NCBI GenBank assembly: GCA_002368195.1
Contig: AP018178.1
Span: forward strand, 5,401,286 to 5,465,285
From: Calothrix sp. NIES-2100
GTDB taxonomy: Bacteria; Cyanobacteriota; Cyanobacteriia; Cyanobacteriales; Nostocaceae
Direction of reading: 5' to 3'
DNA length: 64,000 bases
Part shown: one piece after another, positions 4,979 through 12,646 of the stretch
How the letters are laid out: every line of letters starts with the position of its first letter
How positions within the stretch are numbered: the stretch's first letter is position 1
Notes under the pieces: generated by a model
What the model saw: the letters and a program-made list of their open reading frames with translations, nothing else
The model's database searches: none
What the model was told of the DNA's origin: nothing
Translations under genes and position numbers: made by a program

Positions 4979-5980
4979 ATGAGAAAGCTTTATTTCTTAC
5001 TTCCAGGAACAGATAGTAAATTTGCTTGTGGTGGTCTTTGGGCAGAGTTAAAAACAGTTAATTTAGTTCAGCAGATTTGTAGCGCTGATGTTGTCACTTA
5101 TCGTCAAAGGGAGTCTGGCAGACTGTTTATAGATGATCTACTCCAAGAGAAAAATTTAAATGATGTAATTTTTGTTATTAGTTGGGGATTTGATATAGCC
5201 CAACTCGCTGCTAAACTTCAACAATATAACGTTGTATACCATGCTCATAGCGCAGGTTACAAATTCTACTTATCAGGCAGTATACCCATTATCACTGTTA
5301 GCCGAAATACAATGGGATATTGGGGGCAAAAATCTCCCAACTCTTTGATTTATTATTTGCCTAATCAAATTAGTAACGAATTTCAAAATTTACATCTACA
5401 AAGAGACATCGATGTTTTAGTTCAGGCAAGAAAATCTTCAGAATATTTAATGCAAGCATTGATTCCCGAATTAGAGAAAAAATGTAATGTACTTGTGGTT
5501 AATTCCTATGTAGAAGATTTGCCTGGATTATTCAATCGCGCTAAAATTTATCTTTATGACTCTGCTGAATATTGGGCGCAACAAAATGTAAGTGAAGGAT
5601 TTGGTTTACAACCAATGGAAGCCCTTGCCTGTGGCTGTCAAGTATTTTCAAGTGTCAATGGCGGGTTATCTGATTACCTAGATCCGGGATTTAATTGCTA
5701 TAAAATTGCTGGATATTCAAAAGAATTTGATATTCAACGTATTTTAAAGGTGTTGGAATCTCCAGTCAATATGACTTTGTCGGAAGAGTTTTTTAACGAG
5801 TATCGGTACGACAATATTATTAAGCGGTTGCAAGTGATTCTGGATGAATTAAACGAATTTTTCGATCATAAAATCCAACAACCACAAAATATTCCCGAAC
5901 TCTCAAGAATCCGTTTAGTAAAATTACTGACAAAGAATATATACAGTAAAGTGCGTAAGAAATATTTTCGGGACAATTGA
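4979..5980 (+). CDS. Glycosyltransferase family 1/4-like protein
   Basis: The C-terminal EGFGLQPMEALACGCQVF matches the GT-B/GT4 EX7E donor-binding motif. Confidence 0.7.
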   Translation: MRKLYFLLPGTDSKFACGGLWAELKTVNLVQQICSADVVTYRQRESGRLFIDDLLQEKNLNDVIFVISWGFDIAQLAAKLQQYNVVYHAHSAGYKFYLSGSIPIITVSRNTMGYWGQKSPNSLIYYLPNQISNEFQNLHLQRDIDVLVQARKSSEYLMQALIPELEKKCNVLVVNSYVEDLPGLFNRAKIYLYDSAEYWAQQNVSEGFGLQPMEALACGCQVFSSVNGGLSDYLDPGFNCYKIAGYSKEFDIQRILKVLESPVNMTLSEEFFNEYRYDNIIKRLQVILDELNEFFDHKIQQPQNIPELSRIRLVKLLTKNIYSKVRKKYFRDN

Positions 5981-6203
5981 AAGTTGCTAACACAGAAGTA
6001 GCGGAGTGAAGGCGTGCGGGCTGTGACTATCTTTGCTGCCAATGCATAATCTTGATGCCCGTACCAGGCACCACCGAATCTAGCGCAGCGTTCCCCAGTT
6101 GCGTCAATGTTCACAGTCCCGGTTTTTTGTTAACGTTAGCCGAAGGCTTTGGCGAAGCCATCGCTTGACATTCAAGACAGTCGCTACGGGCGATGAGATC
6201 GTA

Positions 6204-6389
6204 CTACAAGAGGCGATCGCACTTGTTGAGGATGGTGCGTTCCCAGGATAGGGTTTGAGTGAGGTATGGAAGTTGTGGCAAGGAACGCACTCTACAAGAT
6301 CGGCGATCGCACTGCAAAATGCCAGAGCGATCGCGATTCAACTCATTGGCTGAAGTTGTTTTAGTTGGGGTGGTTGATAGGGTTCTCAT
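6204..6389 (-). pseudogene. Orphan 5' fragment duplicating the leader of the DUF4157 gene
   Basis: The first 26 residues (MRTLSTTPTKTTSANELNRDRSGILQ) and about 90 nt of 5' UTR are near-identical to the start of the 838-aa gene at 9054. The frame then diverges and stops after 61 codons. Confidence 0.5.
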
Positions 6390-6537
6390 CCAGTTCTCCT
6401 GGTTTTAAGTTAAAACTTGGGCGATCGCTTGGGTGAGTTAAAGGATAGTTGCTTAGGGGTGTGATTTGTTGGGTTTCATGCTTCGACTCAACCTACGGTT
6501 GGGCGATCGCACCGCAAAATACTGATTCTACGCAGGC

Positions 6538-9054
6538 TTAAAGGTTGTAAATTTTTCCTTCAATGTCACAGATGATAATGTTTCGGTCTCTCGCATATTT
6601 CAGCACTATTTCCGGAAGAGGCAATACGTATTGAACAGGAACCTGAAGCACCTGTACTCCCTCTAGCACTTCGCCCTTGAGGTCGGCTGAGCGAATCGGG
6701 GCTTTCGGCGGGTACTTGACGTAGAGTTCCTGGAGATAGTCCAGCGCCTTAAGCTCATCATTTGCGAGTTGCCCCATTGGAAACTTACGGGAGATTATTT
6801 TCTCTCCTTTAATGTACAGATCGACGCGTGGATATCTTCCGCTTGGCGTACGCAGCTGAACTTCAGCATGCGCCCCTTTCGGAATTTTCAGCTTATTGAA
6901 CAAACTGCCCGCTTCTTTAGGATCCGCGACTATGTCACCGAGTGGGCCTTCAAATCCCTCTTGAAAACCACCGAGGTGTTCAAGTTCCTCTTCGAGAGCC
7001 GTTAAGTCGCAAATTCTATGCGTACTCCATCGACAGATTTTTCCGTTTAGTTTTCTGCGATATATATGACTGCCTCCATCATGCTTAATTTCCATCTCGT
7101 ATACAAAGCCCTCGTCAACGAGCGCCTTGTCAGTTACACCGCGAACCTCACCAGCTTCTACTGCCCTAACGACTTGTGGACCTTCAGTACGTGCGATCTC
7201 TTGTTCAACCGATGCCCGTATTTTGGTCGCCGCCTTCTCCGCTACTTTATCGAGCGTTTCAGCCGCTTCAGACGTCGCCTTACCTTCTCCGCCGCCCATG
7301 AGCTTGCCAATAACGAGATTTACGAGGATCTCTCGACCTGCGCTGCTAGCGATGTCCTTGAAACTTCGACCTTCGCCACTAAGATCCCGCAATCCTTCCT
7401 CACCCAGATCGTCGAGCACGACACCAGCAATCATTATGAGAGGACTAGGTGAGAAGGACAGGACAAAGCCACCGGCCTTGATCAATAAGGGAAAGAGCTG
7501 CGCGGCGAATTTCGCAGCCTCAGCAGTTTCGCGCATAACCTCACCAATGACGGTCTGTCTATTGAGGAGATCAACACTCCCGCTGTAATACCACAATGGG
7601 TAACCATCAAGATAGACCCAAACGATGCCTCCACTGTCAGATCCTGTCCCAAGGGTCTTGTAGATGTCAGCAATGTGGAAACGACCATAACGCTGACCAA
7701 CCCTGAAAATAATATCACCGACCAGTCCCTGGTGAATTCGATGCTCATGTTGATACAGATCCTTCGTCCTAATTCGTTTTATCTCCTTGCTGTCATCCGT
7801 AAGACTCATATTTTGCGGCGTCCTGCCCGCAGCTTCTAGGTAACTATCGCGGTAGCGTGTGATCAGCGCATGAGTTAAATAATCCTTGATAGGTCCCCAA
7901 TGATCCATCAATTCCATCACGGCCATCTCACGGGCGTTTACAGATCCCTCGAACTTGTCCAGACTTGTCTGCTCAAACATGGGACGTAGGTGTTTTTCGG
8001 ACCCCATCCGTATGTATTCTGGTGCATCCGGATCGAGCGGATTGTGTCCACGCAAGAGATCAGTCAGCAGTATCGCAATCTCATCGACAATGTCTGACTC
8101 TGCTCCATCTTGCTCTTGCATTCTCATAAGAGATCTATCATCTTGAATTACAAAACTCGCACGCGCAATCGCCCAGTTTTGGAGTTTGTAGCCCGTAATT
8201 CGATCATCCGGGCCTTGCCCCGACGACCATCTCCGATCAGCCATATAGAGTGGATCATCTAACCCCGATCCTGTTTCCTGGCGTTGGACAAGAGTCGTTG
8301 ATGTTGGTCTTAAAACCTGAGAAGCGCTAGACCAAGTGGCGGGTGGACTGCCGGACTGCTGGATAGCATGAGCCAATTCGTGAGCCAGCAACTGTCGTCC
8401 GGTGGTGCTTCCGGGTACGAACTGACTTGTGCCGAATACGATATTGTGCCCCACTGTGTAGGCATGAGCCTTCACGTCCCACGCCGATCGCTCGGCAGCC
8501 TCGCCGGAATGCACCCGCACCCGTGAAAAGTCATGGCCGAAACGCGGCTCCATAAAGGCACGAGTTGCTGCATCAAGAGGTTGTCCAGGTGAAGATAATG
8601 CTTGATGAACACTGTAGGGCGCTTCAGAAGATTCTTGGGTTGAAGCTGGTGCAGTTGTTTGATTGCCTGTAGCTTTCGTCTGAATGACATCCTCCGCTGC
8701 TACTTGAGGCGAAACTTGCCGTTGAACTAAAGGAGTGATTTGACTGGCGATTTCCCTTTGAATCATCCCCTCTTCTTCGTCTTCCAGTTCCATCTGGCGC
8801 TGAATCGCTGGTTCTGGCATCCGCATTACCTGGTCAGCAATGCGATCGGCTTCCAGTTCCAAGGGATCGTTACTAGCCCCAATCATGAGCTTCCGTTGTA
8901 AGCTAGCCTTATTCTTCGCACAACTGGTGCATTCTCCACCCGCGATCGTATGTTGCCCACAGGACTCACATTTCCGCTGCAAGATGCCTGAGTGACCGCG
9001 GTTCAACTCATTGGCTGAAGTTGTTTTAGTTGAGGTGGTTGATAGGGTTCTCAT
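6538..9054 (-). CDS. DUF4157 (HExxH Zn-metallopeptidase-like) domain protein with a long C-terminal extension; polymorphic-toxin/effector-like
   Basis: A Cys-rich leader (CESCGQHTIAGGECTSCAKNK) is followed by the canonical DUF4157 block: LELEADRIADQVMRM ... SSPGQPLDAATRAFMEPRFGHDFSRVRVHSG ... LLAHELAHAIQQ. After that comes about 580 aa of uncharacterised sequence including a hydrophobic segment. Confidence 0.8.
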   Translation of the reverse strand: MRTLSTTSTKTTSANELNRGHSGILQRKCESCGQHTIAGGECTSCAKNKASLQRKLMIGASNDPLELEADRIADQVMRMPEPAIQRQMELEDEEEGMIQREIASQITPLVQRQVSPQVAAEDVIQTKATGNQTTAPASTQESSEAPYSVHQALSSPGQPLDAATRAFMEPRFGHDFSRVRVHSGEAAERSAWDVKAHAYTVGHNIVFGTSQFVPGSTTGRQLLAHELAHAIQQSGSPPATWSSASQVLRPTSTTLVQRQETGSGLDDPLYMADRRWSSGQGPDDRITGYKLQNWAIARASFVIQDDRSLMRMQEQDGAESDIVDEIAILLTDLLRGHNPLDPDAPEYIRMGSEKHLRPMFEQTSLDKFEGSVNAREMAVMELMDHWGPIKDYLTHALITRYRDSYLEAAGRTPQNMSLTDDSKEIKRIRTKDLYQHEHRIHQGLVGDIIFRVGQRYGRFHIADIYKTLGTGSDSGGIVWVYLDGYPLWYYSGSVDLLNRQTVIGEVMRETAEAAKFAAQLFPLLIKAGGFVLSFSPSPLIMIAGVVLDDLGEEGLRDLSGEGRSFKDIASSAGREILVNLVIGKLMGGGEGKATSEAAETLDKVAEKAATKIRASVEQEIARTEGPQVVRAVEAGEVRGVTDKALVDEGFVYEMEIKHDGGSHIYRRKLNGKICRWSTHRICDLTALEEELEHLGGFQEGFEGPLGDIVADPKEAGSLFNKLKIPKGAHAEVQLRTPSGRYPRVDLYIKGEKIISRKFPMGQLANDELKALDYLQELYVKYPPKAPIRSADLKGEVLEGVQVLQVPVQYVLPLPEIVLKYARDRNIIICDIEGKIYNL

Positions 9055-9093
9055 CCAGTTCTCCCGGTTTTAAGTTGAGGCTTGGGCGATCGC

Positions 9094-9412
9094 TCATGAC
9101 CAGTTTCCGGTCGGAGATTGCCAACGAAACTCTGCCTCATTAATGGGACGTTCAATCTTGTCCAGTTCAGTACGGATACTGGCTAATACGAGAGGCATTG
9201 TTACAGAACTGCCTGCTTTAGCGGCTAAGAATGTGGCATTCAGGGCAATATTATGTATATTACCACCCGTTAGATTAAACCAGGCCAGATGCTCCTCATC
9301 TAGTTCATCGGTAGGAGTTTCGGCGCAAAGGCTCGTTAGCAGATCAGCTTGCGTTCTGCCAATCCAGGAAAGGGAAAGTCGATCAAAAACCGTAGCCGCC
9401 GCAGGAATGCCT
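9094..9412 (-). pseudogene. C-terminal remnant of an AAA+ ATPase with no start and no ATPase core
   Basis: The minus-strand frame gives ...DRLSLSWIGRTQADLLTSLCAETPTDELDEEHLAWFNLTGGNIHNIALNATFLAAKAGSSVTMPLVLASIRTELDKIERPINEAEF, which resembles the lid subdomain of AAA+ ATPases. The frame is closed by an in-frame stop immediately upstream, so there are no Walker motifs. Confidence 0.55.
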
Positions 9413-9573
9413 CATCTAAAGCACAAGTCGAAGCCTTGAAAAACTACACTGGTTATGATCCAGAATTCGTCCATGTTGATAAAATTTATCGCACAAGAGA
9501 GAACCGAGCTTGGTCGCACTGGTTTCCGGTAAAAATTGCTTGGCAAGCGATCGCCCTAATTTACCACAGCTAA
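9349..9573 (+). other. Short ORF, possibly a transposase-related remnant at a rearrangement junction
   Basis: 74-aa ORF containing ...GYDPEFVHVDKIYRTRENRAW.... It sits between two gene fragments. The assignment is weak. Confidence 0.2.
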
Positions 9574-9739
9574 ATCATCATTGACATTAAAACTATTTTC
9601 TGGGGTTTAGAGCCAAAAGTAAAAATACTCATAGGTTAGACAGTTGCGCCTAACTTCGCATTTTGCTAAGATTAGCCTAGTAATGGGTTAAGGAGATGTA
9701 AATAATGGCTATTTTTAGGTCAAGAGGAAAACCAAATAG

Positions 9740-10048
9740 ATGCGAATCATCACTGAGAAAAGACTCAAACAAGCTTGTGAAAAGTACCCCGATGCTGAAG
9801 CTAGCATACGCGCTTGGAAAAAGCTTGTAAAAGAACAAGACTGGAATAGTTTTAACATCATCAAAACTACTTCCCTTTTTGCTCTAGATGGAGTTAAAAA
9901 CTTCGTAATTTTTGATATTGGAGGTAATAAATATAGGTTAATAACCTGTATTAACTATAGGACTAAGGCTATATATATTCGTGAGTTCCTTACTCATACA
10001 GAATACGATAAAGATAAATGGAAAAATGATGAATGGTTTGATAGCTAG
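9740..10048 (+). CDS. higB: Type II toxin-antitoxin toxin, HigB family (RelE/ParE superfamily)
   Basis: GGNKYRLITCINYRTKAIYIREFLTHTEYDKDKW matches the HigB/killer-protein consensus (GNxYRL...Y....VY.R.LxTH.EY). Confidence 0.8.
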   Translation: MRIITEKRLKQACEKYPDAEASIRAWKKLVKEQDWNSFNIIKTTSLFALDGVKNFVIFDIGGNKYRLITCINYRTKAIYIREFLTHTEYDKDKWKNDEWFDS

Positions 10049-10146
10049 CTTGTAATTAGAGAAGCTATAAAACAAGTATAACTAGGGTTACTCAAGCTTT
10101 AATCTTAGTTATAAATGGCGAAATTGCAATATACTATAATGATAAA

Positions 10147-10575
10147 ATGTTACACAAAAATACCTATACAGAATTGCTTACAAGTTTCCCCCCGCGCCCT
10201 ATAAAATCTGAGGATGATTTTGAAAAAACTCAGGCAGTTATTGATAAATTGCTTGACAAAGGAGAATTGACAGAGGAAGAAGAAGACTATCTGAATTTAC
10301 TAGGAATGGTAATTCATGAATATGAATCACAACAAGATTTAGTTCTAGATATTTACGGAGTAGACCTTCTCAAGGTTTTAATGGCTGAATTAAATCTTAA
10401 ACAAAAAGATTTAGTTCCTATTTTTAAAACAGAATCGATTGTTTCTGATGTGCTAAAAGGTAAGCGGAAGTTGACAGTTGAGCATATTCAAAAACTTGCT
10501 GAGTTTTTTAAAGTTTCGCCTGCTGTATTCTTTCCTGTTAATTTCTCAGACAGAGACTTTTTGGAAGTGGCTTAG
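10147..10575 (+). CDS. higA: HigA-type antitoxin with an XRE-like helix-turn-helix
   Basis: Sits immediately downstream of higB. The N-terminal part (EDDFEKTQAVIDKLLDKGELTEEEEDYLNLLGMVIHEYE) and the C-terminal helix-turn-helix (LKQKDLVPIFKTESIVSDVLKGKRKLTVEHIQKLAEFFKV) match HigA. Confidence 0.7.
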   Translation: MLHKNTYTELLTSFPPRPIKSEDDFEKTQAVIDKLLDKGELTEEEEDYLNLLGMVIHEYESQQDLVLDIYGVDLLKVLMAELNLKQKDLVPIFKTESIVSDVLKGKRKLTVEHIQKLAEFFKVSPAVFFPVNFSDRDFLEVA

Positions 10576-11002: not shown

Positions 11003-12646
11003 ATGGCGCAAAATTTTTACGTAAATCCAGGGTCAGGCAATGATAGCAACGTTGGTAGCCAACAAGCTCCCTTTAAAACGATCGCCCAAGCCCTGAAGGT
11101 GGCTACTCCTGGTAGCAGAATTCAACTAGCAGACGGTAATTACAATGCTACTACCGGTGAAGTTTTTCCCTTAACCGTTCCATCTGGTGTAATAGTGGTG
11201 GGTAACGAAGCCAACAAAGGTAGCAGCGTTGTGATTGAAGGTAGCGGTAACTACCTCAGCCGGACATTTGCTGGACAAAATGTCACCTTTGTGATGCTGA
11301 ATGGTGCGGAGCTTCGCGGAGTCACTGTCACAAATCCAGCTAGCCGTGGTTCTGCTGTTTGGGCTGAATCTAGTACACCAACTGTTGCCAATAGCACCTT
11401 CATTAATTCCAAGCGAGAAGGAGTTTTTGCCACTGGTGATGCCAATCCAGTAATCATCGGCAATATATTCTCTGAGAATGCTGCCAATGGTGTTTCCATA
11501 GCTAAAAATTCCAAAGGGGAAATTAAAGGTAATACCTTCGTCAAAACAGGTTATGGTATTGCCGTTAGTGATGCTGCCGCACCCACAATTGTAGATAACA
11601 AAATTTCTGAAAACCGCTCTGGCATTGTTGTCTCTGGCACTGCGCGTCCGATTCTGCGTAATAATATCAGTGAAAAAAATACTGATGATGGTCTGACAGT
11701 AATTGCCAGCGCCTTACCAGATTTGGGCAGTGCCAATAGTCCTGGGGGTAATATCCTACGCAACAACGGTAAGTTTGATTTGCAAAATGCTGGTAGCAAC
11801 CAACTGATTTCTGTGGGAAATCAAATCGATCCCACTAAAATATCGGGCAAAATTGAGTTTGCTTCTACTCCAATACCCACACCAACCCCAACACCTACAC
11901 CAACGCCCACACCAACGCCCACACCAACACCCACACCTACACCGACACCCACGCCCACACCTACACCAACACCGATACCTGTACCTGTACCAACGCCCAC
12001 ACCAACACCAACGCCCACGCCCACCCCGATACCGACACCCACCCCAACACCAACACCCACCCCAACATCCAGCGATTTAACAGACATTGCTAATCATTGG
12101 GCAGCTGCGTTTATTAGAGAATTAGTCAAACAAGGAATAGTTAGCGGTTTTCCCGATCGCACATTTAAACCTGATGCGACAATGACTAGGGCACAGTATG
12201 CTGCTTTACTTGTCAAAGCTTTCAACCCATCCCCAAACCGTGCGGCTATCAAATTCAAGGATGTAGCAGCAGATTTTTGGGCGGCTAAGGTAATTCAGCA
12301 AGCATATCAAGGTTTATTTATCGCTGGTTTTCCTGATGGTACTTTCCACCCCAACCAAAATATCCAGCGCGTGCAAGTTATAGTTTCTCTGGTAAATGGA
12401 TTGGGATTATCTGGTAATACTACCACCGCTTTCAAATTTGATGACCAAGCGAAGATTCCTGACTATGCCAAGGATGAAGTCGCCAAAGCGATAGATAAGC
12501 AGATTATCGTTAATTACCCGAATCCCAAACAACTCAACCCTACCCGCGATGCTACACGCGCTGAGGTAGTGGCAATAGTTTATCAAGCTTTAGCAGATGC
12601 TGGTCGTGTAGCGGCGATTAACTCGCCTTATATCGTAGTTGGTTAA
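11003..12646 (+). CDS. Cell-surface protein: right-handed beta-helix (DUF1565-like) domain, Pro-Thr linker, then three S-layer homology (SLH) domains
   Basis: The N-terminal part has repeated beta-helix turns (GV.V.N....N...G). It is followed by about 65 residues of PTPTPT linker. The C-terminal part has three SLH motifs ([70 protein letters not shown]). Confidence 0.8.
11868..12070. repeat. Coding microsatellite (ACNCCN)n that encodes the Pro-Thr linker
   Basis: Roughly 200 nt of ccaacacc/acgcccacacc repeats inside the CDS. This also produces the spurious antisense ORFs 11821..12087 and 11853..12080. Confidence 0.8.

Follow-up and report, generated by a model that had tools for sequence, protein, structure and literature searches.

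An orphaned DUF4157 effector gene in Calothrix sp. NIES-2100, the probable relic of the cargo end of a contractile injection system operon

Organization of the locus

We analysed a 64,000-nucleotide (nt) stretch of Calothrix sp. NIES-2100 (contig AP018178.1, positions 5,401,286 to 5,465,285; hereafter the window, whose own numbering is used below). It holds a gene for an effector of the type tied to extracellular contractile injection systems (eCISs), surrounded by fragments that probably belonged to the same eCIS operon. The list of open reading frames (ORFs) places the effector gene, intact and 838 amino acids (aa) long, at 6538-9054 on the minus strand. Its product is 100% identical to P0001, deposited as "eCIS core domain-containing protein" of Calothrix sp. 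NIES-2100 (P and L numbers denote proteins and loci retrieved for comparison).

The gene is preceded on the same strand by a pseudogene remnant of an eCIS AAA+ ATPase of the Afp15/Pvc15 class (9094-9425), which was recognized by tblastn with the ATPases of L005, L008 and L010 and by six-frame reading. The remnant aligns to residues 598-704 of the 707-aa L008 ATPase, corresponding to its last ~110 codons. It carries one in-frame stop and one frameshift, and lacks the full WHD and AAA regions with Walker motifs in an intact frame. Its short homologues are named "SpoVK/Ycf46/Vps4 family AAA+". An earlier note on this DNA had assigned 9094-9412 to the C-terminal part of an AAA+ ATPase; the assignment holds for an eCIS ATPase, with a longer extent and the two lesions added.

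Fragments of insertion sequences (ISs) lie on both sides. The point at which the ATPase is truncated is abutted by 97 nt of an IS5-family transposase gene (9418-9514, plus strand), which at the DNA level is 78-86% identical to IS5 transposase genes carried by Nostocales plasmids and partially matches NCBIfam NF033578 (E=4e-6). The ORF at 9349-9573, previously suspected to be a transposase scrap, is a chimera: the suspicion is right for 9418-9514, and the remainder is antisense of the ATPase remnant. On the opposite side, blastn matches in Nostoc and Calothrix plasmids showed that 5995-6190 (plus strand) resembles non-coding sequence flanking an IS110-family element at its 3' end. This stretch is ~80% identical to a flank in Nostoc sp. 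ATCC 53789 plasmid pNsp_g, 150 nt after an IS110-family transposase gene, and may represent a solo IS110-type end. A 64-nt segment of it (6072-6135) matches a plasmid of Nostoc sp. C057 at 100% identity. The copy in the window contains a hairpin-like insertion of 24 nt, and no transposase stands beside it. The ATPase pseudogene tail and the IS5 and IS110-like debris bear out the description of the locus as a decayed island. No other eCIS gene (sheath, tube, baseplate, spike) was found in the window. Calothrix sp. NIES-2100 is listed with two eCIS operons (Geller et al. 2021, PMC8213781, Supplementary Data 7).

The effector protein consists of four parts

An alignment with the closest homologues (A1), together with Pfam matches, divides the 838-aa protein into four parts. 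The leader (aa 1-64; 8863-9054) begins with MRTLSTT and contains a CxxC-x9-CxxC knuckle and LQRK motifs. P0002 and P0003 are full-length homologues that cover the leader too. The public annotation of the gene gives 774 aa with a start at TTG codon 65, and the leader is therefore lost from it. This start is probably 64 codons too late, because both the homologues and the GGAG-ATG context support the leader. By analogy with AlgoCIS (described below), the leader is a probable system-specific loading sequence.

The second part is the eCIS_core domain (PF13699, formerly DUF4157) at aa 159-235 (8350-8580; E=2.8e-30, 104.8 bits, cut-off 22), in which the HExxH motif reads H225-E-L-A-H229. Seven [LIVM]Q[RT][KQRE] motifs are spread across aa 25-259. 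The narrower form [LIVM]QR[KQRE] occurs six times in the first 130 aa, and a seventh copy falls exactly on the border between the DUF4157 and central domains. This border motif reads LVQRQ/ETGSGL (aa 256-257; 8284-8289; the slash marks the border), and a version of it, LQRxExGSGL, is kept even in proteins without DUF4157. Such a motif could be a processing site.

The third part is a strongly conserved central domain of ~430 aa (aa 257-685; 7000-8286), which includes a candidate hydrophobic helical hairpin at aa ~517-548 (7411-7506) according to hydropathy. The domain gave no match in Pfam, NCBIfam, PDB-sequence or PHROG searches. An exhaustive profile search with the central domain and the C-terminal tip against cluster representatives returned 697 proteins at E<=0.001. 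The central domain is found there behind eCIS_core and behind other N-termini, and it precedes at least four other tip types, including the nucleases AHH, colicin/pyocin DNase and Ntox1; PD-(D/E)xK-like tips also follow it. One tentative possibility is that it represents a new membrane-translocation module specialized for nuclease tips. A conserved 430-aa "pre-toxin" domain that stands before several different nuclease tips should be useful for toxin catalogues.

These results agree with the earlier note in its Cys-rich leader, its DUF4157 HExxH module, its hydrophobic stretch in the C-terminal part and its link between this type of effector and eCISs. The protein has PF13699 above the gathering score, the HExxH motif, and a putative N-terminal loading region common to other cargo: the leader family also heads P0019, P0079, P0025, P0100 and the L010/L011 genes. 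Of an eCIS operon, expected within about ten genes of such an effector, the ATPase pseudogene tail is all that is present. Judged by its sequence, the 838-aa protein is an orphaned eCIS effector of the DUF4157 class of eCIS-associated toxins (EATs).

The C-terminal tip is predicted to adopt a PD-(D/E)xK nuclease fold

The fourth part is a C-terminal tip of aa 686-838 (6541-6999, minus strand). It gave no match in Pfam, NCBIfam, PDB-sequence or PHROG searches. A confident structural model built on 39 sequences shows the PD-(D/E)xK nuclease fold with its αβββαβ core; a previous model based on 6 sequences was unusable, with a predicted local distance difference test score of 44.8. The PD-(D/E)XK-like stretch RVDLYIKGEKIISRK, tentatively pointed out before, is therefore supported at the level of fold. 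The Pfam check proposed for the C-terminal region returned no family, and the nuclease-like character of the tip came from the model.

We then considered the distribution of the tip. Our initial homologue search gave 2 proteins, and the exhaustive search of representatives was used instead; the counts below rest on the matches listed, which comprise 150 clusters, ~100 of them with the tip. In 102 of 104 tip proteins, ranging from 131 to 4844 aa, the tip lies at the extreme C-terminus. Its partner domains are eCIS_core in many cases, Rhs repeats (in the 4844-aa protein), PT-TG and Ntox1, and many short proteins carry it as well. A terminal position behind diverse, unrelated N-termini is typical of the C-terminal domains of polymorphic toxins (Zhang et al. 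2012). In P0184, a DUF4157 protein of 1034 aa, an Ntox1 RNase-like domain (761-847) stands directly before the PD-(D/E)xK tip (874-1034), so that two toxin domains are in tandem.

The signature of the tip comprises E731, D745, S755-R756-K757 and E776. D745 is present in all 103 tips compared, S755 in 102, R756 in 99, K757 in 99 and E776 in 101, and position 731 is occupied by E in 85 tips and by Q in 18. On strand 3, S755-R-K757 takes the place of the usual (D/E)xK. A Glu/Asp/Ser/Lys active site has been described in the CdiA-CT DNases TA271 and YPIII (PMC9086364), and the E-D-SxK spacing in the tip is similar. The CdiA-CT DNases (EC869 o11/TA271, 4g6u; Y. pseudotuberculosis YPIII, 4zqu) are likewise polymorphic C-terminal toxins, and the tip too is paired with a putative immunity gene in other contexts. 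However, the tip shares only ~8-9% identity with them, has no sequence-level match and belongs to another delivery system. Judging from the modelled fold and the residue pattern, the tip would be a metal-dependent nuclease, probably a DNase.

Other PD-(D/E)xK-superfamily polymorphic toxin domains, some of them reported fused to DUF4157, include the Tox-REase families of Pfam and PoNe (Jana et al. 2019, PMC6688995). Membership of PoNe was rejected on the ground of its motif: Kx3GExnGIDx2YxnYx3ExK does not occur in the tip, which reads G..F...NEV...LDSY...EI(V/I)SRK...Y..E...KYP. Neither the tip nor its relatives matched Pfam Tox-REase models (0 matches among 39 tips). A widespread PD-(D/E)xK-type tip with no Pfam model and a rare E-D-SxK variant should be of use to toxin cataloguers.

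A putative immunity family accompanies the tip outside eCIS contexts

In two other loci a putative immunity gene for a protein of ~155 aa overlaps the end of the tip gene at its stop codon, at 17532-18014 of L015, an Rhs context, and at 497-958 of L016, where the tip gene stands alone. The two downstream proteins are homologous (26% identity, E=1.6e-15) and match no Pfam family. A conserved, overlapping partner gene supports the reading of the tip as a toxin, and by its sequence and position this family is likely the cognate immunity family. No homologue of it occurs in the window or in any other fetched locus. Directly downstream of the effector gene no immunity-like gene is present in the window, as noted before, or in L001 and L014. 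Many eCIS toxins have no immunity gene (PMC8213781), and its absence from the DUF4157-context loci agrees with that remark. That the family is missing from the eCIS cargo versions examined sharpens the question of how producers tolerate their own antibacterial cargo. Our database searches found no Pfam entry for the family of the tip, of the central domain or of the immunity protein. Tip, partner and central domain appear to be uncatalogued families, with Tox-REase families outside Pfam as a possible home.

The repeated leader probably marks a second cargo gene without a body

The 5' end of the effector gene is repeated beyond its 3' end. The direct repeat is 118 nt long, with 108/118 positions identical (92%) between 9094-8977 and 6429-6312, an offset of 2665 nt, and comprises the 39 nt before the ATG and codons 1-26. 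The two copies contain two perfect 31-nt runs. A 27-mer of the repeat has exactly 2 copies in the window and 0 in 100 shuffles. Repeat search and pairwise alignment place the first copy at 8977-9094 and the second at 6312-6429, both on the minus strand.

In the first copy, the ATPase stop codon (9094-9096) contributes its last base to the 39 nt, which open with a highly iterated palindrome (HIP1) site and end at the ATG. They therefore represent not a promoter but an intercistronic ATPase-to-cargo spacer that includes a ribosome-binding site, GGAG. Consistently, a consensus scan detected no minus-strand promoter-like site upstream of the effector gene, and the promoter/terminator scan showed no enrichment. 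The earlier note had described a repeat of ~170 nt made up of promoter, 5' untranslated region and 26 codons; the repeat and its codons stand, while its length is 118 nt at 92% identity and no promoter is included.

The second copy consists of the spacer and 26 codons of what would be a lost second cargo gene. The 61-aa ORF at 6204-6389 is this orphan stub running on into unrelated sequence. The orphan peptide MRTLSTTPTKTTSANELNRDRSGILQ, the "DRSGILQ" version, matches the heads of the independent cargo proteins P0019 and P0079. Beyond the breakpoint lie HIP1 sites and short hairpin repeats. A blastx search of 5981-6540 found the 26-codon leader alone, with no coding homology after the breakpoint, and tblastn of all fetched DUF4157 proteins against the window revealed no further remnant. 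The previous suggestion of a recombination scar is supported for the stub, which may equally be called a deletion scar. HIP1 (GCGATCGC) occurs 64 times in the window, which has 42% GC overall. In the 560 nt of 5981-6540 there are 5 sites against 0.56 expected (Poisson P ~3e-4), and each repeat copy has a site on its upstream edge, with another right after the breakpoint of the orphan copy.

Further copies were sought more widely. A pattern search for the leader DNA across the genome contigs gave 0 matches, and an A1-based locus search of the same contigs gave 599 pattern matches, none of which was confirmed. Plasmid tblastn with the N-terminal 235 aa detected only distant DUF4157 genes (<60% identity). 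Rfam had no match in 5800-9900.

Related cargo arrays share their 5' leaders

In related contigs, an AAA+ ATPase gene followed by tandem DUF4157 cargo genes is found within or beside complete eCIS operons. L008 is a full operon with sheath, gp19 tube, Pvc16_N, a 707-aa AAA+ WHD ATPase and base_V. Its ATPase is followed by DUF4157 genes of 550 and 729 aa and then by CIS_tube, spike and gp25; the product of the 729-aa gene is P0025, which carries the leader type internally. In L005 and L010/L011 the ATPase precedes 2-3 tandem DUF4157 genes, whose products are near-identical over the first ~60-100 residues and diverge in their C-terminal parts. In L001, the source of the closest homologue ending in the same tip, the leader occurs three times in a row, and L004 has five tandem DUF4157 genes. 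All of the multi-gene DUF4157 arrays fetched have 5' leaders in common between tandem genes: L001, L005, L010/L011 and, in part, L004.

A comparable arrangement has been reported for AlgoCIS, in which the cargo proteins of one system have a common, system-specific N-terminal region, without which the AAA+ ATPase does not bring about loading, DUF4157 being dispensable (bioRxiv 10.64898/2026.05.27.728243). The related arrays and the shared AlgoCIS N-terminus indicate that a repeated leader is the normal state of a cargo array, and the notion that a 5' leader repeat is unusual does not hold. Since related arrays share their leaders, the "duplicated leader" is best explained as the common 5' end of two adjacent, paralogous cargo genes, only the first of which has kept its body. 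The peculiarity of the NIES-2100 locus is that the second cargo gene ends after 26 codons.

Truncated 5' ends recur in these arrays. Stubs comprising the first ~45-55 codons of CIS_tube lie between cargo genes in L001 (2906-3031), L008 (13654-13842) and L014 (3727-3975 and 4862-5041) and are also seen in L009; where the contig reaches an intact CIS_tube copy (L008, L014), they are upstream of it. L004 and L014 contain 5' stubs of DUF4157 genes. By their positions, such stubs seem to mark the borders of cargo cassettes in eCIS operons, and repeated 5' stubs offer a simple marker of cargo-array evolution. They would be the mirror image of the orphan toxin/immunity modules at cdiA (contact-dependent inhibition) and rhs loci, where fragments of the conserved part just downstream of the full gene are likewise recombination scars. 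Those orphans are 3' fragments with tip and immunity gene and without a start, whereas the NIES-2100 stub is a 5' end with neither toxin nor immunity gene.

As a tentative idea, to which we give less than even odds, cargo arrays are built and reshuffled by recombination anchored in conserved 5' ends, those of the leader and of the next tube gene, with stubs left at the borders. If so, the stub at 6312-6429 may be one such recombination scar, and the common leader may let a stranded cargo protein be loaded in trans by eCIS machines elsewhere.

Origin of the locus and alternative explanations

We consider it probable, at roughly 75%, that these ~3.3 kb are what is left of an eCIS operon at its cargo end. 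The ancestral layout would have run from an AAA+ loading ATPase through tandem DUF4157 cargo genes with the same short leader to tube and baseplate genes. Its surviving pieces would be the dead ATPase tail of ~110 codons, one complete cargo gene, and the spacer with 26 codons of the next. With the IS5 scrap as its boundary on one side and the IS110-like scrap on the other, this piece of the operon may have been isolated through a deletion or a transfer associated with ISs. That the cargo gene has stayed intact beside a decaying ATPase tail suggests that the effector gene is still in use. Plausibly, to judge from its sequence, the stranded gene is used through loading in trans via its leader. 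An AAA+ ATPase from an eCIS locus at another place in the genome would recognize the N-terminal leader, and the protein would be loaded into the particle. After injection, the central domain and the hydrophobic hairpin would help the C-terminal part to reach target nucleic acids, and the PD-(D/E)xK tip (E731/D745/S755-x-K757) would cut DNA, possibly RNA, in a metal-dependent manner.

Several points weigh against this account. Loading in trans is an assumption, because the 64 kb contain no structural gene of an eCIS, and no promoter was identified for the stranded effector gene. The window also lacks an immunity gene, though the tip family has one elsewhere. Foldseek of the tip model against the PDB gave no significant match. 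We infer that E731, D745, S755 and K757 correspond to the CdiA-CT catalytic residues from their order, spacing and secondary-structure position. The role given to the central domain is pure inference for a domain with no homology to any known family. Finally, the relic may have been left by deletion in place or may have arrived as a fragment.

The absent promoter and immunity gene, the loss of operon and ATPase and the IS scraps on the flanks would also suit an entire locus, the 838-aa gene included, that is non-functional debris in which no disabling mutation has yet arisen. We regard this as unlikely. The 2517-nt ORF is intact and keeps HExxH and every conserved tip residue, while the 330-nt ATPase remnant has taken two disabling hits; the same density predicts ~15 in the effector gene, a rough figure that derives from two events. 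Moreover, the leader is kept and the strain has two eCIS operons. A different view of the protein takes the tip as an XisH-like DNA-binding or regulatory module and denies it an anti-cell effector role. XisH/XisI domains are among the eCIS "cloud" domains (PMC11297309), and the DUF4157 versions in the window, L001 and L014 are not followed by an immunity gene. Nevertheless, the terminal position of the tip in nearly all listed proteins, including Rhs, its place after Ntox1 in P0184, the conserved overlapping downstream gene in both Rhs and stand-alone contexts and the complete E-D-SxK-E set all speak for a toxin, which makes a regulatory module a distinctly improbable explanation.

The two leader copies had also been proposed to hint at cassette switching, that is, an active device swapping cargo bodies behind one expressed leader. 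The perfect 31-nt runs, the coincidence of the repeat edges with HIP1 sites and the abundance of DUF4157 and CIS_tube 5' stubs in cargo arrays elsewhere, which points to recombination at 5' ends over evolutionary time, are compatible with such a device. Yet the copies are direct repeats, so recombination between them would remove the one cargo gene that is still intact. Adjacent to the locus there is no ORF for a recombinase or an invertase, the orphan copy is followed by HIP1-rich filler in place of a cargo body, and the 8.5% divergence of the copies argues against frequent exchange. A site-specific cassette or phase-variation switch was likewise rejected, as only direct repeats are present, with a single inverted repeat in the HigA region. 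We therefore give an active switch very little credence.

On the preferred reading, a relic of an eCIS cargo end, the protein is close to known effectors. EATs with N-terminal DUF4157/eCIS_core (PMC8213781; PMC11297309), and Cgo1 and Cgo2 of AlgoCIS, share its plan of leader, HExxH domain, long linker and variable toxin, and their genes likewise follow an AAA+ ATPase gene, often in tandem and often without an immunity gene. In contrast to them, the NIES-2100 gene is stranded, with no eCIS structural genes within 64 kb and a pseudogene tail for an ATPase, and its linker and toxin match no Pfam family. Tme of the Streptomyces davawensis CIS (PMC11126660) starts with DUF4157, continues with predicted transmembrane helices and ends in an endonuclease, and so resembles the 838-aa protein in plan, though not in sequence. 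Tme is 2247 aa long with tape-measure homology and an EndA-like nuclease, whereas the 838-aa protein has no PHROG or tape-measure match and a PD-(D/E)xK tip. With thousands of members of its class already predicted, this further DUF4157 effector does not make the biology of the locus surprising.

Neighbouring genes

The neighbours of the relic are a glycosyltransferase gene (4979-5980) and a HigB/HigA pair, identified by Pfam. The pair, a HigB toxin (PF09907) with a helix-turn-helix antitoxin, occupies 9740-10575, right beside the relic. Farther on, 11003-12646 encodes a DUF1565/beta-helix protein with three SLH domains and a long (TP)n linker derived from a simple repeat.

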